From Horticoccus luteus (lineage in GTDB: Bacteria; Verrucomicrobiota; Verrucomicrobiia; Opitutales; Opitutaceae): 32,000 nt of DNA. A program made the translations under genes and the position numbers. This document shows, piece after piece, positions 972 to 22,013 of the stretch (position 1 is the first letter of the stretch; each line of letters opens with the position of its first letter). The notes below the pieces were generated by a model. It was not told where the DNA came from. It saw only the letters and a program-made list of their open reading frames with translations, and searched no databases. The stretch covers positions 2,160,001 through 2,192,000 of the forward strand of contig NZ_CP080507.1 in NCBI RefSeq assembly GCF_019464535.1, read 5' to 3'.

Positions 972-1418
972 CTAAAGCCGAAAGTCGCGCCCCAACAGCG
1001 GGATGTTTTCGAAGTGCCGCACGATCGGCGTCGGACCGCGTTCAGCGGGCAACTCGACTTCTACCACGTCGAACCGCCACGTGTGCGGCTTTTCCTTCAA
1101 CGCGCCAAGATACGCGCGGCACGCCCGGCGCAGCGCCTCTTTTTTGCGTTTGTCCACCGCATAATACCCGGGCACCAACGCGGTCGCCGCCCGCGCTTTC
1201 ACCTCAACGAAGACGAGCACGTCCCCATCGCGGCAGACGAGATCGAGTTCATCGCGCCGGTCTTTCGGGCTGCGCCAATTCCGTGCAATCACCGCGAAAT
1301 TTCGTTCGCTGCGCAGGAACCGTTCGGCGGCGCGTTCGCCTTGCGCCCCGCTATCCGCCTCACGGCCGGTCAACGTGTTCCACCAGCGCGTCCAAGCCGA
1401 CGCTTCTGCGCGTTTCAT
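972..1418 (-). CDS. yraN: YraN/UPF0102-family endonuclease-like protein
   Basis: 148-aa ORF with the family pattern '[24 protein letters not shown]...[20 protein letters not shown]'. The N-terminus is longer than usual, so an internal TTG near 1373 is a possible alternative start. Confidence 0.8.
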
Positions 1419-1446
1419 TGATTCTCATTGCCGCATCTGGCGGCCG

Positions 1447-3663
1447 ATGGCAATTCCTGACGACCCCGCGTCTGCCATGGCTTCCTCCGGAATATCCAAC
1501 GCTCTTCGCCGTTCGCTTTTGATCAAGTTGATCTCCAAGCCCGCGCCCAGTCGCGAGGACGTCGATTCCGTCGTCGAGCTCACCGCCTCGAAAGTCGTCG
1601 AGGCGCTCCAAGCGCAGTCGATGACCCTCTATCTCGTCGAGGGAAACGATATCCTGTTCAAGCACGTCTACTATTCCCCCACGCTCTGGACGTCGCACCC
1701 GGCCCTCGAGCAAAAGTTGCAGGAAACCGCCGCCATCCTTCTGGAAACGAAACTGCCCCTCGGCACCGGCGTCGTCGGGAAGGTCATCGCGACCGGTGAA
1801 CCCGTGTTCTTCCGCAACACCGAGAGCCAGGCCCCGTTCATGAACTCCATGGGCGATCGCACCGGCTTCGCCGTTGAGTCGATGCTCACGGTGCCGCTCA
1901 AGACGACCAACGTCATCGGCGCGATCCAAGTGCTCAACAAAGAGCCCTCCGCCGGCACCGCAGGTTTGTTTGTCGACCGCGATCTCGCGCTTCTGCAAGA
2001 GGTCGCCGAATACTCCGCGACCCTCATCCAGCGCATGCTGGATCCGAAATTCCAGCTCAGCGCCGACGACACCGCCAAATTCGTCGCAAAGTTCACCGAC
2101 CTGCCGCTCGTCACTTCGCCCGATGAAATCGAATACGACGAGAAACTCGTCGAATCCGTGGGCGATGCGATCATCCGGCGCGAAGGCATTTTTCCGCACA
2201 AACGCCTTACGCCGACCGCCGTCGCGGCGGTGATGATCAACCCGCTCGATTACGCCAAGCGCGAATCATTCACCCAAGCCACCGATCTTGGCCTCGAGGA
2301 AATCCGCGTCGTTTCCGCCGCTCTGTTCGAGACCTTGCTCCGCCGTTTTTTCAAGGACGCGAAAAAAGACGCCGCGTCTGACAACATCGATATTTCCTCC
2401 GTCGCCGAAGTCATCACTAGTGCTTACGACACCGCCGGGCACAGCACGGAAATCACGGCCGCCGATCTCGAAAGCGAAGATTCCGCGCCGATCGTCCAAC
2501 TCGCCAATCGGATTATCGAAGACGCCTACATTTCCGGCGCTTCCGACATCCACATCGAACCGCAGGAAAAGGAGCTGATGGTCCGCTACCGCATCGACGG
2601 ATTGTGCCAGGAAAAGCTTCGCCTGCCCAAGCAGGTTTCCAACGCCCTCGTCACGCGGCTGAAGATCATGTGCAACCTCGACATCGCCGAACGGCGGCTG
2701 CCGCAGGACGGACGCATCGTTTTCAAAAAATACACCAAGAAGAACATCGATATCGACCTGCGCGTCGCCACCGGGCCGATGAATCACGGCGAGAAAGTGG
2801 TCATGCGCATTCTCGACAAGCAGAAGTCCACCTTGCCCCTGACTGCCTTGGGATTTTCCGAGGAGAATCTCGCGAAGTATCGCGACTGCATCCGCCAGCC
2901 TTACGGCATGATCCTGCACTGCGGTCCGACCGGCTCGGGCAAATCGATGACGCTCTACTCGGCGCTCGCCGAAGTGAACACGCCCGACGTCAATATTCAG
3001 ACCGCCGAAGATCCGATCGAATACACACTCCCCGGCCTCAACCAAATGCAGATGAGCCGGCAGATCGGCCTCACCTTTGCGCGGGCACTGCGCTGCTACC
3101 TGCGCATGGACCCCGACATCATCCTCGTGGGCGAAATCCGCGACGAGGAAACCGCCGGCATCGCGGTGGAAGCCGCCCTCACCGGGCATCTGCTCGTCTC
3201 GACGCTTCATACCAACGACGCGCCTTCCACCATCTCGCGCCTCGGCGAAATGGGCATCGAGCCCTTCAACATTTCCGCCTCGCTCATCTGCGTGTGCGCG
3301 CAACGCCTGCTGCGCCGCGTCTGCAAGAACTGCAAGGTCTCCTACGAGCCGGTGGGCCGCGAAAAAGACATCCTCGAAAAGGCCATCGGCTGGTCGGGCC
3401 CCATCTTCAAAGCCAACCCGCAGGGCTGCCCCACCTGCAACGGCATCGGCTACAAAGGCCGCGTCGGCATCCACGAATTGATGACCAACAGCGAAACGCT
3501 GACCGAAGCCATCAACAAGGAGGTGGAGGTCGCCGAACTGAAGCGCGTCGCCATGAAAACGGGCATGAAGACGCTGCACCAGGATTCGATGCTCAAGGTC
3601 AAACTCGGCCTCACCACCGTCGAGGACGCGCTGGCGAACGTCCCTCCCGACCTCATCCTCTGA
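1447..3663 (+). CDS. GAF-domain-containing type II secretion / type IV pilus assembly ATPase (GspE/PilB family)
   Basis: The N-terminal GAF-like module spans about nt 1555-2040 ('[18 protein letters not shown]...[19 protein letters not shown]...[20 protein letters not shown]'). A T2SSE_N-like segment follows. The ATPase core has Walker A 'GPTGSGKS' (nt 2923-2946), Walker B '[10 protein letters not shown]', His box '[13 protein letters not shown]' and a tetracysteine 'CKNCK...[12 protein letters not shown]'. I chose the ATG at 1447 because the track start at 1375 (GTG) would overlap yraN; the ATG at 1477 is also possible. Confidence 0.9.
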
Positions 3664-10910: not shown

Positions 10911-12002
10911 GTGACCTCCGACGCCCTCAAAGACGCCCTCAAGCAAGTTAAATATCCCGGCTTCAGCCGCGACATCGTGTCATTCGGCCTCGTGCGGAGC
11001 GCGGGGTTCACCGACGGCGTCGCCAAGGTTTCGCTCGCGATCACCACCAGCGATCCGAAGGTCCCGCTGCAATTGAGGAACGACGTGGACCGCTGCCTGC
11101 GTGCCGTGCCCGGCGTGCAGGAAACGATCATCGATATCGCCGTTTCCGCCGCAAAAACCCCCGCCGCCGGCGGCAATCTCGGCGGTTCAGGCTCCGCGCC
11201 GAAGGGCCTGAAGCACTCCGTGGCCATCGCTTCCGGCAAAGGCGGCGTCGGGAAAAGCACGTTCGCCGTCAACCTCGCGTGCGCGCTGGCGCAAGTGCTC
11301 GGCGCCGAAGGCCGCCAAGGACGCGTCGGCCTGATGGACTGCGACATCTATGGCCCGAGCGTGCCGCTCATGATGGGCATCAACGGCCGTCCCGAGGTCG
11401 AAGGCGAAGGCGCCGACGCGCTCATCATCCCGTTGGAAAACTACGGCGTGAAAGTCATGAGCATGGGTTTTCTCGTCGACGACAACACCCCGGTCGTCTG
11501 GCGCGGACCGATGATCATGAAGACGATCCAGCAGTTCGTCCAAAACGTGAAATGGGGCGAGCTCGACATCCTCCTCGTCGACCTTCCGCCCGGCACCGGC
11601 GACGCGCAACTTTCCCTCGTGCAAACCCTGCCTCTCGATGGCGCGGTCCTGGTGACCACACCGCAAGCTGCCGCCACGAACGTGGCGCGCAAGGGTGGAT
11701 TGATGTTTCAAAAAGTGAACGTGCCCCTGCTCGGCGTGGCTGAAAACATGAGCTACTTCATCGACTCTGCCGGCCAGCGTCATGCGCTGTTCGGCGAAGG
11801 TGGCGGCATTGCCGTCGCGGAGCGTCTCGGCACCACCTTGCTCGGCCAGGTGCCGCTACTCAGCGCGATTCGCGCCGGCGGCGACTCCGGCATCCCCGTC
11901 GTCGTGAGTGAACCGGAAGGCGCCGCCGCCCAATCTTTCACGGCGATTGCGCGTAGTTTGCTCGCGCGTCTCGCTCCCCGCCCGACTCCGGAGACCACGT
12001 GA
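10911..12002 (+). CDS. apbC: Mrp/NBP35-family Fe-S cluster carrier ATPase with N-terminal DUF59/MIP18 domain
   Basis: GTG start. N-terminal 'LKQVKYPGFSRDIVSFGLV' (DUF59-like). Deviant Walker A 'IASGKGGVGKSTFAVNLA' and the family block 'LDILLVDLPPGTGDAQLS'. Confidence 0.9.
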   Translation: MTSDALKDALKQVKYPGFSRDIVSFGLVRSAGFTDGVAKVSLAITTSDPKVPLQLRNDVDRCLRAVPGVQETIIDIAVSAAKTPAAGGNLGGSGSAPKGLKHSVAIASGKGGVGKSTFAVNLACALAQVLGAEGRQGRVGLMDCDIYGPSVPLMMGINGRPEVEGEGADALIIPLENYGVKVMSMGFLVDDNTPVVWRGPMIMKTIQQFVQNVKWGELDILLVDLPPGTGDAQLSLVQTLPLDGAVLVTTPQAAATNVARKGGLMFQKVNVPLLGVAENMSYFIDSAGQRHALFGEGGGIAVAERLGTTLLGQVPLLSAIRAGGDSGIPVVVSEPEGAAAQSFTAIARSLLARLAPRPTPETT

Positions 12003-12069
12003 CACGACTCGCGGCATCGCAGGCATTGACAGTGCTTCTTCGCTCGCTCTCATTGCCGAGCGCCAGCGC

Positions 12070-12308
<239 letters not shown>

Positions 12309-12324
<16 letters not shown>

Positions 12325-12345
12325 CCCGGTTGAGGTCAGTTTCTT
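12309..12345. terminator. bidirectional intrinsic terminator between the small ORF (+) and rpmG (-)
   Basis: Hairpin with stem ctgacc (12321-12326), loop cggttga, stem ggtcag (12334-12339). TTTCTT follows on the + strand and TTTTCTTTTTT on the - strand (complement of 12309-12320). A second GC hairpin, gccgcgg-atgac-ccgcggc (12354-12372), lies just downstream of the rpmG stop. Confidence 0.5.
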
Positions 12346-12385: not shown

Positions 12386-12550
12386 TTACTTGATCTCCTT
12401 GTGGAGCGTGTGCCGCTTCAGGTGCGGATTGTATTTCTTCTTTTCGATGCGCTCCGTCACCGTCTTTTTGTTGCGCTTCGTGAGATAGCGCGAGACGGGT
12501 TTCCCCTCTTTGCGGGCTTCGGTGCACTCTAAGATGACTTGTTCTTGCAT
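12386..12550 (-). CDS. rpmG: 50S ribosomal protein L33
   Basis: 54-codon ORF below the track length cut-off: '[54 protein letters not shown]'. This matches the L33 pattern (..TKRNKK....ERLE.KKY.P....HT.HKE.K). The track ORF 12336-12608 is in the wrong frame. Confidence 0.85.
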
Positions 12551-12638: not shown

Positions 12639-14003
12639 TCAGGTCGAGTTCGCGCCGACGGCGATTTTCTTTTCAGTCAGCGGGAGCATCACGCCGCGGC
12701 GAAACAACGTCACCAAGCCGGTGCTCGACGAGACGACCAGCGCAATGCAGTTCGCCGCCACGCTCACCGCCGCCGCTGCCGCGTGCCGGCTGCCCAGTCC
12801 GCTCGGCAACGTGTGATCGGCGTCCGTCGCTTGCACCAGGCTACCGGCCGTTTCCACCACCCCATCGCCTCGGATCACGAACGCTCCATCGATCGACGAA
12901 AACTCTTTCACCGTTTCGTCCATGAAGGGGTTGAGGATGTTGCGATCCTCTTCCTTGTAACCGTAAAACGGGTTGAGCACGAGGGGCTTGGTCAGCTTTG
13001 AAACTTTTTCGTAATCACCCACGACGAACAGGCAGCCCACCGGCCGGCCTTCGCGCCCCTCGACCGCGAGTTCGGTCGCGATCGCGATCACGCGCTCCAG
13101 CACTTCCGCCTTCACGTCGGCCGGCAAAAGTTGCGCCTGCCCGGTGAGCAAGGGCGAAAATTCCCGCTCCACATCGACGACGACGAGCGTGTCGAACTGA
13201 TTGCTGCCCGTGATTCCACCGACACAGCACACCCGGTCTTTGAAAGAAATCACTCCGCGCGTCAGCGCCACCAGCATCGCACTGCGCAACTGCGCGAGCC
13301 GGCTGCTGGAAAAGGACCGGACCTGAATCGTCTCCGTAAACGCCTTGCCCTCGTTTTCCGATGGCTCGATGGGATTGCGCGTCACCAAAATCGTTTTCAT
13401 CCGCGCGCGGAGCGAGTCCGACTGCAAGCCGCCAATAAACGTGTCGCCAAACACCATGATCGACGCGCAATCCGCCCCCCTCGCCACTCGCTCCGCCTCC
13501 GTGAACATCAGCCGGTTGATGCGATTCTGCTGCGCCTGCACCGGACGGATGCCGCCGAACCCGCCGATCAAGCGCTCGTAAAGGGCGTCCAAATCCGGCG
13601 CGCCGACGAGACTTTCCACGAGCTCGGGATCCTTCACCAGCCGCGCGATCGAGGCCAGCATCTGCAGATAATCGCGCGCATCTTCGCCGGCGATTAACAT
13701 CACGATCAACCGCACGCGCTCCTCATCCTTTGTCCCGTCGTGGCGAATACCCACCCGGCTGCGCCCGATCGCGAGAATATACCGGCGCTTCATTTTGACG
13801 CGCACGTGCGGCAGGGCGACGCCGTAGCCGAGATACGTCGTCATCGTGCTTTCCCGCGCCAGCAGCGCACGCAACAGTGCGTCGGGCTTCAAGTCGGGAA
13901 ACCGCGCCACGCACACCGCCAGCAATTCCTGCAGCGCCCCTTCGAGATCGAGACTGCGCAGGTCGACGACGCGACTGCGGGCGATGATTTGGTCGAGCCG
14001 CAT
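12639..14003 (-). CDS. PTS EIIA(Ntr-type) domain / PK_C-like domain / diadenylate cyclase (DAC, DisA_N) fusion protein
   Basis: The N-terminus has the EIIA-2 signature 'TYLGYGVALPHVRV' (His66 = nt 13806-13808) and 'VRLIVMLIAGEDARDYLQMLASIARL'. The C-terminus has DAC motifs 'DGAFVIRGDG' (DGA = nt 12882-12890), 'LGSRHAAAAAVS' (RHA = nt 12780-12788) and 'ALVVSSSTGLVTLFRRG'. There are no TM helices and no HhH domain. Confidence 0.88.
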   Translation of the reverse strand: MRLDQIIARSRVVDLRSLDLEGALQELLAVCVARFPDLKPDALLRALLARESTMTTYLGYGVALPHVRVKMKRRYILAIGRSRVGIRHDGTKDEERVRLIVMLIAGEDARDYLQMLASIARLVKDPELVESLVGAPDLDALYERLIGGFGGIRPVQAQQNRINRLMFTEAERVARGADCASIMVFGDTFIGGLQSDSLRARMKTILVTRNPIEPSENEGKAFTETIQVRSFSSSRLAQLRSAMLVALTRGVISFKDRVCCVGGITGSNQFDTLVVVDVEREFSPLLTGQAQLLPADVKAEVLERVIAIATELAVEGREGRPVGCLFVVGDYEKVSKLTKPLVLNPFYGYKEEDRNILNPFMDETVKEFSSIDGAFVIRGDGVVETAGSLVQATDADHTLPSGLGSRHAAAAAVSVAANCIALVVSSSTGLVTLFRRGVMLPLTEKKIAVGANST

Positions 14004-14040: not shown

Positions 14041-14415
14041 TTACTTCTCCCACTCGAGAGCGCCCTTTTTTACTTCGTAAAACAATCCCAGCACCAGCAC
14101 CCCGATGAAAAACAGCATCGGCGTGAGAATCGTAATGTGATTGGCGAGAAACTCCCGGTAAATGAACGACCACGGGATCAGGAACACCACTTCGATATCG
14201 AAGAGGATGAAGAGCATGACCGTGACGTAAAACTTCACCGAAAACCGGCTGTGCACCACGCCCTGGGCGGCGACGCCGCACTCATACGCGCTATCCTTGA
14301 TCTTGTTCTTGCTCGCCCGCTGGCCCAGAAACTGGCTCAGCCCGATGATCGTGCCGCCGATGGCCGCCGCCAGGCAGATTTGAATCAGAAACGGAAGATA
14401 GGCCGCGGAAGACAT
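14041..14415 (-). CDS. nuoA: NADH-quinone oxidoreductase subunit A (NuoA/ND3 family), not followed by nuoB-N
   Basis: 124 aa from the internal ATG (complement of 14413-14415). It has three hydrophobic helices and the family core 'YECGVAAQG...FSVKFYVTVMLFILFDIEVVFLIPWS'. The upstream extension of the track ORF to 15039 is out-of-frame shadow of the neighbouring gene. Confidence 0.85.
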   Translation of the reverse strand: MSSAAYLPFLIQICLAAAIGGTIIGLSQFLGQRASKNKIKDSAYECGVAAQGVVHSRFSVKFYVTVMLFILFDIEVVFLIPWSFIYREFLANHITILTPMLFFIGVLVLGLFYEVKKGALEWEK

Positions 14416-14459: not shown

Positions 14460-15536
14460 CTATGGCCGCACGTCGATGATGTGCGCCGAGGCCACCTTCG
14501 TCGATCCCACCCCGAGAATCTCGGCGTATTCCAACGTGCGGATGTCCTCCGAGATCGGGGGGAATCCGTAGCGCTTTCGCCACATATTCATCCGCGCGAG
14601 CATCATCGAATCGATGATCACTGGATCGCTGCTCAACCACAGAAGCGGTTCGGACTGCGTGTAGAGCGAATTGAAAAACGGTCCGCCAATAAACTGGTAG
14701 TGCTCGAGGCTCGCGATCGTGAATTCCCACGTCTCGCGCAATTCCGGGATCGCGCTCATTTCCGCGACCGCCGCCGGCGCATTGGCCGGCGAACGGAAGA
14801 AACGCGCCGTGTTGGACGCGTTCCACAATGTCGCATTCACCAGTGCACCGTTCACGCCCAACGTCGGATGATCGGTATAAACCGGCAGGTTGATCCAGAA
14901 ATCCGCATCGAGAAACAGCGGCGTCGCGAGAAAGCTCTTGCGATCTTCGTCCTTGGTCGACGAATTCGAGAAATCCTTGGTTTGCGATTCGGCGAAGATC
15001 GGATCGAAACGCTGCGGCAACGGACTGTCGTAAAACCAAACCGGGTCGTAAAACCGCCCCGATTCTAACACATAGACCGGATGGCCCTTGAACGGCGTTT
15101 GTCCGGTCACGAGCGCCGGCAGATAGCCTGTCATGCGCAACCGCAGCTGATTGAGGCCGACGAGAAAAATCCCTTCCTTGTCGAAGCCGCGCCGCTCCAG
15201 CGCCGCAATCACCGCCTGCACCAGCGGCACGGGCGTGGCCATGCCCGGCCCGGAATCCGTGTAAATCTTCAACCCAACTTTCTTCTTCGGCCCCGGCGCC
15301 AACCGTTTGCCGGTCGCCTGCTCAAAACGCGTGATCAACGTCTCCACGGCCGCGTCGTAACTCGGTTCGCTGAACGAGGGCAGTTTCGCCTCCCACACCG
15401 GCGCGCGCGGCGCCTTGGGCGCCGCCGCTACATTCGACGGTGGCAACTGCGGCGCCGCCGTCGGCGCAGCCGGTCCGGCCCCCGCCGAAACGGTCAGGCA
15501 AGCCCATCCGATCAGCGCAAACAAAAATGGCCGCAT
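14460..15536 (-). CDS. secreted DUF362-like protein
   Basis: Start chosen at 'MRPFLFALIGWACLTVSAGAG' (signal-peptide-like); the ATG at 15572 is an alternative. A Pro/Ala-rich linker follows. DUF362-like blocks are 'KKVGLKIYTDSGPGMATPVPLVQAVIAALERRGF' and 'DADFWINLPVYTDHPTLGVNGALVN'. Confidence 0.65.
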   Translation of the reverse strand: MRPFLFALIGWACLTVSAGAGPAAPTAAPQLPPSNVAAAPKAPRAPVWEAKLPSFSEPSYDAAVETLITRFEQATGKRLAPGPKKKVGLKIYTDSGPGMATPVPLVQAVIAALERRGFDKEGIFLVGLNQLRLRMTGYLPALVTGQTPFKGHPVYVLESGRFYDPVWFYDSPLPQRFDPIFAESQTKDFSNSSTKDEDRKSFLATPLFLDADFWINLPVYTDHPTLGVNGALVNATLWNASNTARFFRSPANAPAAVAEMSAIPELRETWEFTIASLEHYQFIGGPFFNSLYTQSEPLLWLSSDPVIIDSMMLARMNMWRKRYGFPPISEDIRTLEYAEILGVGSTKVASAHIIDVRP

Positions 15537-15642
15537 TGCTCGTATGTAGCCGGAGGGACACGGATGTTTCATCGATAAACCGCAAAACTTGACAGCCCCC
15601 CCGTCGGGTTGAAAGTGCATTCTTTCTCCTGCCGCCGATCCC

Positions 15643-17493
15643 ATGCCCGTCATCAAGCCCACCTGCGTTCGGGACCTGAAATTACGGGTGAACATAGCCG
15701 ATGTCGTCGCGCGGGTCGTCACCCTGCGCAAAGCCGGTGCGCGCCTCAAGGGCTTGTGCCCGTTTCACCAAGAGAAGACACCGTCGTTCAACGTCGATCC
15801 CGATAAGGGGTTTTTCAAGTGCTTCGGCTGCGGCAAAGCCGGCGACATCATCAGCTTCGTGCGCGAAACGGAGCAACTCAGCTTCAGCGAAGCGATCGAG
15901 ACGCTGGGGCAACGCTTTGGCGTCGTCATCGAATACGAAGAGGGCTCCGGCCCCTCTCGCGAAGAGCGTTCGCTGCGGCAGGAGCTCTTCGAAATTCACG
16001 ACCTCGCCACCGAGCACTTTCACCGCGCGTTTCGCGGCGATTCACCCACCGGTGAATTCATGCGGCGTTACTGGCAGGACGCGCGCCGCTTCGATCTCAC
16101 CATCGCCGAGGAATTCAAAATCGGCGTGGCCGCGCCCACGGACGACGGCCTCGCCGCCGCCCTCCTCAAACGCAAATTCTCCGAGGATGCGCTCCGCCAG
16201 TGCGGCCTGTTCTTCGTGCGCGAAACCGCCGTCCTCGGCCTCGGCTCGCTCAAGCCGCGTTTCCGCGGGCGCCTCATGATCCCTATTCGCGATCATCAAG
16301 GTCGCGTCGTCGCCTTCACCGCCCGCCAGACCGAACTCACCCCGGCCGACGATCCCGCGCACGACGCGAAATACGTTAACTCGCCGGAAACACCCATCTT
16401 CACGAAGGGCAATCTCCTCTTCAATCTCGACCGCGCCCGCACCGCCGCCGGCGACGGCCATCCCTTCGTGCTCGTGGAGGGCCAGCTCGACGCGATTCGT
16501 TGCTGGAGCGTGGGCCTCAAGACGGCCATCGCTCCGCAGGGCACCTCGATCACCGAAAACCAGCTCCTGCTCCTGCGCCGCTATCATCCGCAGGTCGAAT
16601 GCTTCTTTGATAGCGACAACGCCGGCCAAAAAGCCGCCCTGCGGTTTCTGCCCATGGCGTTGAAGGCCGGGATCGAAGCCCGGTTTCTCGTGCTGCCCGC
16701 CGGCGAAAAACTCGACCCCGACCTGCTCTTCCGCGAGCGCGGTCTTGCCGCTTACGAGGACCTCCGCCAGCACGCGGTGTCAGCCATGGCGTTTGCCACC
16801 AAGGCTATTTTGCCCCGCGCCGACGATGCCTCGGCCGAACATCGTTCGCGCGCCGCCCAGCAGTTATTCGAAATCGTCGCCATGGCCGAAAGCTCGGTCA
16901 CCCGGACCACCTTTCTCAGCGAGGCCGCCGGCCACCTCGGGCTTCAAACAGGCGCCGTGCAGCGCGATTTCGAAACGTTTCTTCAACGCGCCAGCCGCGC
17001 TCCTTCCTCCCGCCCCGCCCCGCCCGCGCCGACCCGCACCGCCACCCAAAACATTACTCCCGAACACGAGTTGCTTCTCCTCTGCCTCCATTGCGAACAA
17101 CTCGGGAAACCGCTCAGCCTCCACCTGCCGCACGAGTGGATCGATACATCACACGTCGCGGGCGTGCTCCTCAATCGCTTTCTCGCCGAGTTCGAACACG
17201 ACGGCTGGCCGGGCCGCGACCACCTGGACGCCCTGTTGGAGACACCCGAGGAAAAGACGCTCGTCGCCTCGCTCCTCTTTGATGCGCCGGAGTTTGAGGA
17301 TCCCGCAAAAATCGCCGCCGAAGGCCTCACCATGCTGCGCCGCCGGGCGCTCCAACCCCGCCTGCGGCAAATAGAACTTGCTTTAGCCTCCCCCCATGGG
17401 GACATTCATGCTGACCCAATTTCACTGCTAAAAGAACGCTCCGAAATTCAACGTCAGCTCCGCCAACCGCTCGGCCTGCCCGTAGCGGTTTAG
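15643..17493 (+). CDS. dnaG: DNA primase
   Basis: Zinc-ribbon '[37 protein letters not shown]'. RNA-polymerase core '[22 protein letters not shown]'. TOPRIM '[10 protein letters not shown]...[11 protein letters not shown]'. Confidence 0.95.
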
Positions 17494-19709: not shown

Positions 19710-22013
19710 TTATTTGCCGTCTTCCAGCGCAAGGGGCGCCAGCGCGGTCCGGAATTCGTCCAACTGCTCTGCCGTGCCCAGCGCGAGCAGTTCGTCACCG
19801 GCGGTCAGCACCTCCGTCGCGGGCGGATTCAACGTCCGCAAACGCCCGCGGTGAATCCCCGCGATTTGCACGCCGTGCCGCCGCGCCAGGCGCAACGCCG
19901 CGAGCGAAAGTCCCACCACCGGCGAATCGGCCGCCACCATCATCGTCTCCATGCGCACCGCCTCGATCCCGTCGAGGGAGGGCGCGGTGCCGGAGGTGCG
20001 CAGCAAGAACTCCTTCCCCGCGCGAACCTGCCGCCGCGTTCCGAGCAGCAGCAAACGATCCCGCGGATACAGCACTGTCGTGGCTTCCGGCAGCGAGATG
20101 AAAAAGCCCTGCCGGTCGATGCCCACGACCGAACAACCGAAGCGCTGGCGCACGCCGAGTTCCGCGATCGCCTGACCGCGGCACTCCGCCAGGTCCGGCA
20201 CGGTGCACTCGGCGATATGCAACCGCCACGTGCCATGTTCCTCGATCCATTCCGTCATCCCGCCGCCTTCGCTCACGTCCGAGATTTCCACCGCCGTTTG
20301 CAACTCCACCTCGAGCCGGCTGTGCCAGTAAACCAGCCGCCGTCGCAGCAGCAGGAGCCCGAGTAACGCCACCACCGCGCTGGCCAGCAGCAGCATCCGC
20401 GCCGTGCCTTCCGCCGGCAGCACCGCCGCGAGCCAGAAAAACAGCGCACCCCCGCCCACCGCTTTCAGCGCCGTTTCCAGCAGCGGCCGCGCGCTCACCG
20501 CGCGTTCTCCCCGCGCCGTGAGCACCTGCGTGTAAACCAGCGCCAGCGCTGACAAGTTTCGCCAGATCGCCACCACCGGCGCGAGCACCACCAGACTCAA
20601 CGCCACCCAAAAAATCACCTCCGGCCCATTGGGAAACAGCCAGTCCGTCCCCAGCCAGTTTTGCACCGCCCCCAGCAATTGTTGCGAAAAGAGCAGCAGC
20701 CCCGTCACGAACAGCACTTCGATGCCGATTTGCCAAAAACGCTTGCGACTCACCTTCCACAATTTTTCCAACCGCCCGCGAAAATGCAGCCGCCGCAACC
20801 ACGCGTGATAGACTTGCAGCCAGTCGAGCACCCACGGGCGTTGGTAGCGCAGCAAGCGGTCCGCCAGTTTCGCCGACCGGCGCGTCAACCACGGCGCGAC
20901 CGCCCCCGTGACCAGCGCGATGCCGATCACCAGCGGATAAAAACTGGCCCGCAACACCGCCGCGGCGAGGCCGAGTTGCGCGATGATAAACGAGAACTCG
21001 CCGATCGGCGTCAGGATGAACCCCGCGCGCAGCGCGTCGCGCACCGGCGTGCCCGTCAGCGCCAGCGCCACCGCGCTCGTTCCCACCCGCGCCACGATCG
21101 TCAGCAGCGAGATGCCCAGCACCAGCCACCACGCGCCGCCGATGTCGCGCAAATCCACTTGCATGCCGATCGCCACGAAAAACACCGGCGCAAAGACATC
21201 GCGCAACGTGTCGAACGTCCGCTCCACCTGCGCCCGATGCGGTGTATCCGCCACGACCGCACCCAGCAGAAACGGGCCCAAGGCCAGCGAATAGCCCGCT
21301 TGATACGCCACCGCCGCCCCGCCGAGCAACAGCCCCGCGGTGCCCAGCGTCTGCAGGTCCTCACTCGCGACCCGCCCCAGCCGCCGCAACAACCACGGCA
21401 GCAGCAGCAGTCCCAGCACCGCCGCCAGCGCGATGAAGCCCCCGAGCCGCGCCAGCGTGCTGCCGATTTCCGGCCGCGCCGCGTTGTCCAGGTGCACCCA
21501 CGAATTCAGCACCGTCAACATCACCACCGCCACCACCGCCTCCAGCAGCGAAAACCCCGCCGCGAGCTGCCCCGCCCGCTCGTGCATCGCCTCTGAGTCC
21601 TGCACCAGCCGCCCCACGATCGTCGAAGACGATACCATCAGCATGCTCGCAAAAAACACGCTCTCGATCGTCGTCCAGCCCATCGCCGCGCCGAGCAGCC
21701 GTCCCACGTAATACATCATCACCGCCCCGCCAATCGTCCCCAGCAGCAGCGAAAACCCCAACCGGCGGATACGCCGCCAGCTCAGGCGCAAGCCGATCGA
21801 AAACATCAAAAACACCAACCCGAGCTGCGCCGCCGCCGCCACCCGCTCGCTCCCCGCCACCAGCGTCAACGGCGGCGTATGCGGCCCCACCAGCGCGCCC
21901 GCCGCCAGATATCCCACCACCGGCGAAAGCCCGCTGCGCCGGCACAGCCACCCGGCCGCCGCCGCAACGATCAGGATCACCGCGAGATCTTGGATAAAAG
22001 CGACGCCAGGCAT
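19710..22013 (-). CDS. CPA2-family cation:proton antiporter with extra TM segments and two C-terminal RCK_C (TrkA_C) domains
   Basis: N-terminal Na+/H+-exchanger-type TM domain ('IQDLAVILIVAAAAGWLCRRSGLSPVVGYLAAGALVGPH...'). About 4 further helices follow. The two RCK_C-like modules span about nt 19713-20228 ('ECRGQAIAELGVRQRFGCSVVGIDRQG...LYPRDRLLLLG' and 'VVGLSLAALRLARRHGVQIAGIHRGR...LTAGDELLALG'). Confidence 0.9.
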   Translation of the reverse strand: MPGVAFIQDLAVILIVAAAAGWLCRRSGLSPVVGYLAAGALVGPHTPPLTLVAGSERVAAAAQLGLVFLMFSIGLRLSWRRIRRLGFSLLLGTIGGAVMMYYVGRLLGAAMGWTTIESVFFASMLMVSSSTIVGRLVQDSEAMHERAGQLAAGFSLLEAVVAVVMLTVLNSWVHLDNAARPEIGSTLARLGGFIALAAVLGLLLLPWLLRRLGRVASEDLQTLGTAGLLLGGAAVAYQAGYSLALGPFLLGAVVADTPHRAQVERTFDTLRDVFAPVFFVAIGMQVDLRDIGGAWWLVLGISLLTIVARVGTSAVALALTGTPVRDALRAGFILTPIGEFSFIIAQLGLAAAVLRASFYPLVIGIALVTGAVAPWLTRRSAKLADRLLRYQRPWVLDWLQVYHAWLRRLHFRGRLEKLWKVSRKRFWQIGIEVLFVTGLLLFSQQLLGAVQNWLGTDWLFPNGPEVIFWVALSLVVLAPVVAIWRNLSALALVYTQVLTARGERAVSARPLLETALKAVGGGALFFWLAAVLPAEGTARMLLLASAVVALLGLLLLRRRLVYWHSRLEVELQTAVEISDVSEGGGMTEWIEEHGTWRLHIAECTVPDLAECRGQAIAELGVRQRFGCSVVGIDRQGFFISLPEATTVLYPRDRLLLLGTRRQVRAGKEFLLRTSGTAPSLDGIEAVRMETMMVAADSPVVGLSLAALRLARRHGVQIAGIHRGRLRTLNPPATEVLTAGDELLALGTAEQLDEFRTALAPLALEDGK

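Follow-up and report, generated by a model that had tools for sequence, protein, structure and literature searches.

Could a domain that accepts phosphate from the phosphoenolpyruvate (PEP)-dependent phosphotransferase system (PTS) control, from within the same polypeptide, the synthesis of the second messenger cyclic di-AMP (c-di-AMP)? This question is raised by a gene of Horticoccus luteus (Verrucomicrobiota), located in a stretch of 32,000 nucleotides of contig NZ_CP080507.1 (positions 2,160,001 to 2,192,000 of the forward strand), which is referred to here as the window. From the N- to the C-terminus, the product of this gene consists of a PTS EIIA domain, a DacZ_P domain and a diadenylate cyclase (DAC) domain, with the following layout in window coordinates.

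12639..14003, minus strand: the EIIA/DacZ_P/DAC gene, a complete open reading frame (ORF) of 454 aa with an ATG start
13569..13943, minus strand: PTS_EIIA_2 domain, PtsN-like (aa 21-145)
13158..13526, minus strand: DacZ_P domain with a pyruvate-kinase C-terminal-like alpha/beta fold (aa 160-282)
12690..13067, minus strand: DAC (DisA_N) catalytic domain (aa 313-438)

Two questions have to be answered for such a protein. First, is its cyclase domain catalytically competent, given that the RHR motif of known cyclases reads RHA here? Second, is the EIIA domain a phosphorylation-dependent switch, or does it serve the cyclase in some other way? The explanation that we regard as the best on the whole, and in which we place modest confidence, is that the protein would be an active DacZ-type cyclase gated through His66 of its EIIA domain.

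The three Pfam domains are all significant and do not overlap: PTS_EIIA_2 is matched with an expectation value (E) of 2e-19 and 70.4 bits (cut-off 27), DacZ_P (PF21755) with E 3.1e-28 and 98.4 bits (cut-off 27.4), and DAC (PF02457) with E 8.6e-19 and 67.7 bits (gathering score 27). An AlphaFold2 model made with 81 homologues, with a mean predicted local distance difference test (pLDDT) score of 91.4 and a predicted template modelling (pTM) score of 0.74, is composed of three packed globular domains, and Foldseek and the model concur in reading the N-terminal domain as PtsN, the middle one as the C-terminal domain of pyruvate kinase and the C-terminal one as CdaA/DisA. The three-module reading given in a preliminary description of this DNA, which had been made from the letters alone, is thus borne out. 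That description had also remarked on the absence of the three transmembrane helices of CdaA and of the helix-hairpin-helix (HhH) domain of DisA, and here too our results agree with it. No further Pfam domain was matched in the 454-aa protein at a maximum E of 1, so that an HhH domain is lacking, and the protein ends 16 residues past the DAC domain; transmembrane helices are not suggested by the model, which is packed and globular. All three domains are under similar constraint, the identity per domain being 76-88% among the 120 close homologues, and the protein is an intact, ordinary member of its family.

Might the long ORF be an artefact of assembly or annotation, created when a sequencing error ran two genes together? 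Nothing was found in favour of this idea. Of the 8000 candidates scored in searching 5.8 billion proteins, 3359 were significant matches, and the best 120 homologues have the same three domains in the same arrangement, at 80-93% identity. When 1.84 billion cluster representatives were scanned exhaustively with HMMER, 5036 relatives came up, of which 301 had E 1e-30 or better; in GTDB, scanned with one genome per species, there were more than 569 encoding stretches. The uninterrupted architecture therefore recurs in more than 3000 database proteins, in 80 genome loci and in about 90 clusters at 50% identity, and it is present on the finished chromosome of Opitutus terrae PB90-1, where the orthologue has 80% identity. 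Since the model also packs as one chain, we reject the artefactual fusion, to which we assign a practically negligible probability.

The first question depends on the catalytic residues of the DAC domain, which are encoded at the following positions.

12882..12890, minus strand: DGA motif, D372-G373-A374, with D and G invariant in 90 three-domain and 39 two-domain representatives
12780..12788, minus strand: R406-H407-A408, the counterpart of RHR, aligned to the RHR of CdaA
12723..12731, minus strand: S425-S426-S427, the counterpart of the S-E-E of CdaA, aligned to CdaA VVSEETG

The domain matches CdaA structures with E 1e-5 (phmmer), Foldseek matches it to both DisA and CdaA, and in an alignment with Listeria monocytogenes CdaA the segment GSRHAAA faces GTRHRAA while VVSSSTG faces VVSEETG. 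The DAC/DisA_N domain and its RHA motif at nt 12780-12788 are accordingly as the preliminary description had them. With CdaA and DisA the protein has in common the DAC catalytic fold, the DGA motif and the R-H residues; it differs from CdaA in having a globular EIIA domain at its N-terminus in place of three transmembrane helices, and in reading RHA for RHR and SSS for SEE, and from DisA in lacking the C-terminal DNA-binding HhH domain. DisA likewise does without the SEE glutamates.

Conservation was assessed in 90 rows out of the best 150 (89 representatives plus the query) in which all three domains are aligned; they have 27-62% identity and stand for about 90 clusters at 50% identity. D372, G373, G404, R406, H407 and S425 are invariant in this set. 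Position 408, on the other hand, is occupied by A in 48, T in 15, Q in 8, R in 8, E in 3 and by other residues in the remainder. The same is seen in 39 two-domain DacZ-type representatives, where position 408 is A in 13, H in 6, V in 3, R in 3 and something else in the others, and the positions of D372, G373, R406, H407 and S425 are almost always kept. The third motif follows the family pattern S-[E/Q/S/A]-S, with S427 in 87 of the 90. Among the close sequences (the query and its 120 homologues), RHA is found in 121 of 121, SSS is likewise fixed and SSST is read in 115 of 121, and the DAC domain is the best conserved of the three, at 88% identity. Judged from these alignments, RHA is the family norm and no peculiarity.

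This bears directly on an alternative that the preliminary description had derived from the RHA motif, namely that the protein is a catalytically dead sensor of ATP or c-di-AMP, the change of RHR and SEE into RHA and SSS having abolished synthesis. It is true that the protein lacks the second Arg of the RHR motif as well as the two Glu found in SEE of CdaA, and that no named DAC equivalog in NCBIfam scores anywhere near its cut-off (109.8 bits against 430 for the haloarchaeal DacZ model NF041371, 26.5 against 188.8 for CdaA, TIGR00159, and 20.2 against 201 for DisA, NF010009). However, position 408 drifts while its neighbours are frozen, which means that it is not required in the DacZ-type lineage and does not mark a decayed active site, and the invariance of D372, G373 and S425 makes a dead enzyme unlikely. 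A dead protein would also hardly have the DAC domain as its most conserved part, and DacZ-type enzymes are proven cyclases: those of Haloferax volcanii, Pyrococcus yayanosii and Methanococcus maripaludis are active (PMC6741144; PMC12699388). We therefore reject the dead sensor, which we hold to be very improbable, together with the hint that had been read from RHA, since the third position of the motif varies across the whole clade amid invariant catalytic residues. The suggested check of RHA in orthologues has thus shown the triplet fixed in the close sequences and only its third residue free in the diverse ones.

The kinship to archaeal CdaZ/DacZ that had been suggested on account of the middle domain is also confirmed, because DacZ_P is present and the NCBIfam DacZ model is the best DAC-type match; by its scores, the protein is a relative and no equivalog. 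Like HVO_1660 of H. volcanii, CdaZ of Methanocaldococcus jannaschii and PyaDAC of P. yayanosii, it has a PK_C-like DacZ_P domain immediately before the DAC domain, the DGA motif and a soluble make-up. It differs from them in its additional N-terminal EIIA domain and in being bacterial (Opitutia), and the linkage to mscS seen for H. volcanii dacZ is absent from the query gene. In archaea bearing DacZ, c-di-AMP controls osmotic and K+ functions (PMC6741144; PMC12699388), and the H. volcanii enzyme is strictly Mn-dependent (PMC6741144). No archaeal name was found among 10 two-domain representatives looked up by cluster, and the most archaeal-looking of the two-domain representatives, P0239, was judged bacterial given its RimP-NusA-IF2 neighbourhood.

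The middle domain, which Pfam labels as "probable sensor domain DacZ_P" (PF21755), had been described as resembling the C-terminal domain of pyruvate kinase, and this resemblance holds at the level of the fold. When the domain was modelled in isolation (pLDDT 88.4), the top 50 PDB matches were all pyruvate kinases, aligned over about 120-130 columns; PykF (8eu4), with E 5e-6 and TMq 0.61, is an example of the best matches. Several homologues match Pfam PK_C by sequence, a model that the query's own sequence does not reach at a maximum E of 1. G263 and D271 are invariant in a loop of DacZ_P that may bind a phosphorylated ligand or take part in pairing.

For the second question, the EIIA domain and its putative phospho-acceptor have to be considered.

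13806..13808, minus strand: codon of His66, which is predicted to accept the phosphate within the motif G-x-G-V-A-L-P-H and aligns with the active-site His of PtsN

The coordinates were checked, and YGVALPHVR indeed contains His66 at nt 13806-13808. The domain matches the PtsN structures 3urr and 4gqx with E 4e-8 (phmmer) and Escherichia coli PtsN (1a6j) with TM(target) 0.88 and a root-mean-square deviation of 1.7 Å (Foldseek). In the alignment with EIIA-Mtl, His66 falls on His65 and Arg50 on Arg49; in that with PtsN, His66 falls on the active-site His. The assignment of a PtsN/EIIA-2 domain with His66 in GYGVALPH is well founded in view of this structural match and the 70.4 bits in Pfam. His66, Pro65, Arg50 and Glu51 are fixed in 121 of the 121 close sequences, and among the 90 diverse representatives His66 is found in 83, Pro65 in 89, Arg50 in 81 and Glu51 in 87, counts that include one representative, P0215, with no EIIA domain by Pfam and a spurious alignment across the EIIA region. 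The conservation of His66 among orthologues, on which the earlier proposal of phosphorylation gating had been made to depend, is therefore high in both sets. The domain has the fold, the His-Pro context and the Arg-Glu pair in common with PtsN (EIIA-Ntr) and, like PtsN, should act as a terminal phospho-acceptor with a regulatory and not a transport role; it differs in being covalently fused to its presumed target and in having, in Opitutaceae, a Tyr in place of the second active-site His. The PtsN equivalog TIGR01419 scores 39.4 bits against a cut-off of 138.7, and no rpoN gene was found in the 32-kb window.

A second line of evidence comes from the order of the domains. EIIA is N-terminal to the cyclase in most members of the family and C-terminal in P0185 (L084 10001-11443, on a metagenomic contig), whose order is permuted to DacZ_P-DAC-EIIA_2. 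Independent fusions in two orders indicate that the link between EIIA and cyclase is functional and not accidental, and the conservation of the His66 site and the permuted fusion both support a genuine regulatory link. For the distant member P0253, whose gene is on a contig of 5.05 Mb, the neighbour directly upstream of EIIA-DAC encodes a transporter of AA_permease-EIIA_2 architecture (L083 8050-11302), which likewise argues for a functional connection between EIIA and cyclase. Other combinations were observed as well: P0215 is DHH/DHHA1-DacZ_P-DAC, DHH/DHHA1 being a phosphodiesterase module, P0229 is DacZ_P-DAC-DAO, with a flavin adenine dinucleotide (FAD) oxidoreductase at its end, and P0137 is acyltransferase-EIIA-DacZ_P-DAC. 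Some of these three may be fusions made by gene calling; such swaps and additions of modules underline the modular design of a sensor followed by DacZ_P and DAC.

The domains and their folds are identified, the residues for catalysis and for phosphate acceptance are conserved and the fusion recurs in two orders; from these established points we infer enzymatic activity, phosphorylation of His66 and a direction and mechanism of control as follows. The protein would be a diadenylate cyclase of the DacZ/CdaZ lineage that is soluble and catalytically competent and belongs to a subclass of Verrucomicrobia and Spirochaetes, and its C-terminal DAC domain would condense two ATP into c-di-AMP when two DAC domains face each other, which is to our knowledge the mode of all characterised DACs. 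DacZ_P would be the built-in regulatory or oligomerisation module of this lineage, the PK_C-like domain standing where pyruvate kinase has its allosteric and dimer-interface domain. The EIIA domain would provide a second input: a carrier of the NPr/HPr type would phosphorylate His66, with PEP feeding in via EI or EI-Ntr, and the phosphorylation state of His66 would alter the pairing of the DAC domains, so that the output of c-di-AMP would track cellular PEP and carbon/nitrogen status. In proteobacteria, K+ uptake of the Trk type is held back by dephospho-EIIA-Ntr (PtsN), and in Gram-positives K+ uptake is held back by c-di-AMP; because both restrain K+ uptake, we guess by analogy that the unphosphorylated form would be the more active cyclase. 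Phosphorylation gating as such is a reasonable proposition with roughly even prospects, and the more specific idea that a carrier-phosphorylated His66 switches c-di-AMP synthesis on and off in cis is held more tentatively, with the balance tilting somewhat against it.

A comparable arrangement is known from Caulobacter, in which the nitrogen branch of the PTS (PTS-Ntr) reportedly controls SpoT (PMC4848567). In both cases a PtsN-type domain reports, or would report, the metabolic state to an enzyme of a nucleotide second messenger; in Caulobacter the control is exerted in trans on a (p)ppGpp enzyme and reportedly shown by experiment, whereas our protein would exert it in cis, on the synthesis of c-di-AMP, as deduced from sequence and models. 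PTS-Ntr reportedly also controls K+ systems (PMC9239096). A 2026 review reports PTS-Ntr genes in Chlamydiales, Spirochaetales and Planctomycetales and leaves c-di-AMP unmentioned (PMC13104625), and our literature search for a link between EIIA and DAC returned nothing relevant.

Several observations weigh against gating through His66, or against the cyclase activity that it presupposes. Seven of the 90 representatives carry Q, S, N or R for His66 and have retained the domain, so that phosphorylation-dependent control cannot hold for every member. Where the EIIA fold has its second His, the query has Tyr112; Tyr is the residue in Opitutaceae and His that in 57 of the 90. In EIIA-Mtl the second His is required for onward phosphate transfer, and its loss would fit a terminal acceptor, which regulates and passes no phosphate on. 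No gene for HPr/NPr or EI was found within the 32-kb window or in three spirochaete contexts. Similarly, tblastn with manually entered sequences of E. coli and Bacillus subtilis HPr and E. coli EI gave no match for HPr or EI in the window and 85 related loci (1.28 Mb, within 10 kb of the gene), a result that covers these loci only. As to the cyclase, the family has Ser at the second Glu of CdaA, and in Opitutaceae Ser further replaces the family's usual Glu426, so that the metal site may differ from that of CdaA; moreover, no assayed enzyme of the EIIA-DacZ_P-DAC class was found in the literature.

Some of these facts would also be explained by an active cyclase whose EIIA domain is a phosphorylation-independent docking or ligand-binding module, or an aid to oligomerisation, with its His kept for structural reasons; a K+ transporter, a kinase or a metabolite could then be the partner of EIIA. 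Under such a scheme PTS carrier genes need not lie near the cyclase, and none was found near any member examined; the seven representatives with a replaced His and the Tyr at the second active-site His in Opitutaceae would follow with ease, and the AA_permease-EIIA_2 protein of L083 demonstrates that EIIA_2 is also fused to transporters outside the PTS. It is less easily reconciled with the constellation of R50, E51, P65 and H66, which is at least 90% conserved among proteins otherwise about 30% identical, or with an EIIA fold nearly superimposable on PtsN, a protein that binds its partners in a phosphorylation-dependent manner (PMC13104625). We consider a phosphorylation-independent role of this kind unlikely, and nonetheless considerably more probable than a dead sensor. 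Gating through His66 remains the reading that we prefer.

If gating is true, the PEP-dependent phosphotransferase system would for the first time be seen wired directly to c-di-AMP, and Opitutia and some spirochaetes would have merged the K+/osmotic control by PtsN and by c-di-AMP in one protein. We know of no study of c-di-AMP signalling in the phylum Verrucomicrobia, for which the EIIA-DacZ_P-DAC class would give a first handle, and the biochemistry of this class would reveal in what way a PTS phosphorylation signal acts on c-di-AMP. The regulatory idea is plausible and should be attractive to specialists in c-di-AMP and the PTS.

How widespread is the architecture, and is it new? The best 80 of the stretches found in GTDB all belong to the class Opitutia (Opitutales and Puniceicoccales), with the exception of one contig binned as Polaribacter. 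This contig (L061, CAXQRK010000040.1, "MAG: Polaribacter sp.", a metagenome-assembled genome) carries an Opitutia-type pair of a nuoA-like gene and a cyclase with 54% identity, and it is probably mis-binned. With a profile of distant members, a second large clade was found in Spirochaetota, including Spirochaetia and Salinispira pacifica, whose members are named "diadenylate cyclase" or "PTS sugar transporter subunit IIA" at NCBI. Names given in the databases to the matched proteins include "diadenylate cyclase [Opitutaceae bacterium]", "diadenylate cyclase [Opitutus terrae]" and "DisA.../mannitol-fructose-specific IIA". A census of DAC architectures by Galperin from 2023, "All DACs in a row", reportedly distinguishes finer families. 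The class DacD (Corrigan and Gruendling 2013) is, we presume, defined by the presence of a PTS_EIIA_2 domain. Its representatives are listed from Lacunisphaera, Coraliomargarita, Puniceicoccaceae and Opitutae (Braun et al. 2019, PMC6741144), and these are the taxa that carry the EIIA-DacZ_P-DAC gene. The family is thus probably the class DacD of the literature, of which our protein resembles an ordinary member, probably without any difference. The fusion is neither unusual nor new: the architecture is already known and widespread, being annotated by Pfam, NCBI and JGI in thousands of genomes and metagenomes and included in published classifications of DACs. As a finding of a genome scan it adds little, all the more since RHA is the family norm.

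The genes around the cyclase were also compared across loci, and the following features of the window are relevant.

14041..14415, minus strand: nuoA-like gene, 124 aa, encoding a protein of the NuoA/ND3 family with three transmembrane helices (Pfam Oxidored_q4, E 5.6e-29)
12386..12550, minus strand: rpmG (ribosomal protein L33), downstream of the cyclase (NCBIfam L33, 73 bits against 50)
12317..12343, minus strand: terminator-like hairpin and T-run after rpmG, an 11-pair stem followed by CTTTTTT, found as a consensus pattern match
14460-15749, minus strand: hypothetical protein with a signal-peptide-like N-terminus (MRPFLFALIGWACLTVSAG...), just upstream of the nuoA-like gene
19710-22013, minus strand: K+/H+ antiporter of the CPA2 family with two TrkA_C (RCK_C) domains at its C-terminus, at a distance of 5.7 kb from the cyclase
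11908-12324, plus strand: small ORF with a weak match to DUF4032 (E 7e-4), convergent with rpmG
1375-3663, plus strand: GAF-MshEN-T2SSE secretion/pilus ATPase

The stop codon of the nuoA-like gene is 37 nt from the start of the cyclase on the same strand, and the two genes are probably co-transcribed. In 69-70 Opitutia loci a nuoA-like gene immediately precedes the cyclase, the two being separated by 2-175 nt (median 56 nt); this pair is the most conserved linkage, being kept down to 43% cyclase identity. nuoB is absent after the nuoA-like gene. The NuoA-like protein scores 82 bits with the best NCBIfam NuoA model, the cut-off of which is 155, and it retains YECG and FDxE, which we take to be hallmarks of NuoA. 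It may be the true subunit of complex I; a more daring idea is that it serves the cyclase as a membrane partner, either in lieu of the transmembrane anchor that CdaA has or as a coupling to respiration. A promoter scan near the cyclase gene found nothing, and the hairpin after rpmG likely marks the end of the transcription unit, as far as its pattern tells.

The gene order of the window (MreB, CPA2 antiporter, RpoD, DnaG, hypothetical protein, nuoA-like, cyclase, rpmG, Mrp) is the same in O. terrae PB90-1; this synteny and the 80% identity of the cyclases place the window in an Opitutaceae genome. rpmG follows the cyclase in O. terrae and in 43 loci, and the hypothetical protein at 14460-15749, which has no Pfam or NCBIfam match, keeps its position in 49 loci. 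In O. terrae and 9 other loci, too, the CPA2 antiporter is encoded less than 10 kb away from the cyclase, and RCK_C (TrkA_C) is a known type of c-di-AMP receptor domain. The C-terminal part of the small ORF at 11908-12324 is conserved beside Mrp in 37 loci. Finally, MshEN is a module that binds cyclic di-GMP, and with the MshEN ATPase at 1375-3663 the window would contain a second element of nucleotide-messenger signalling.

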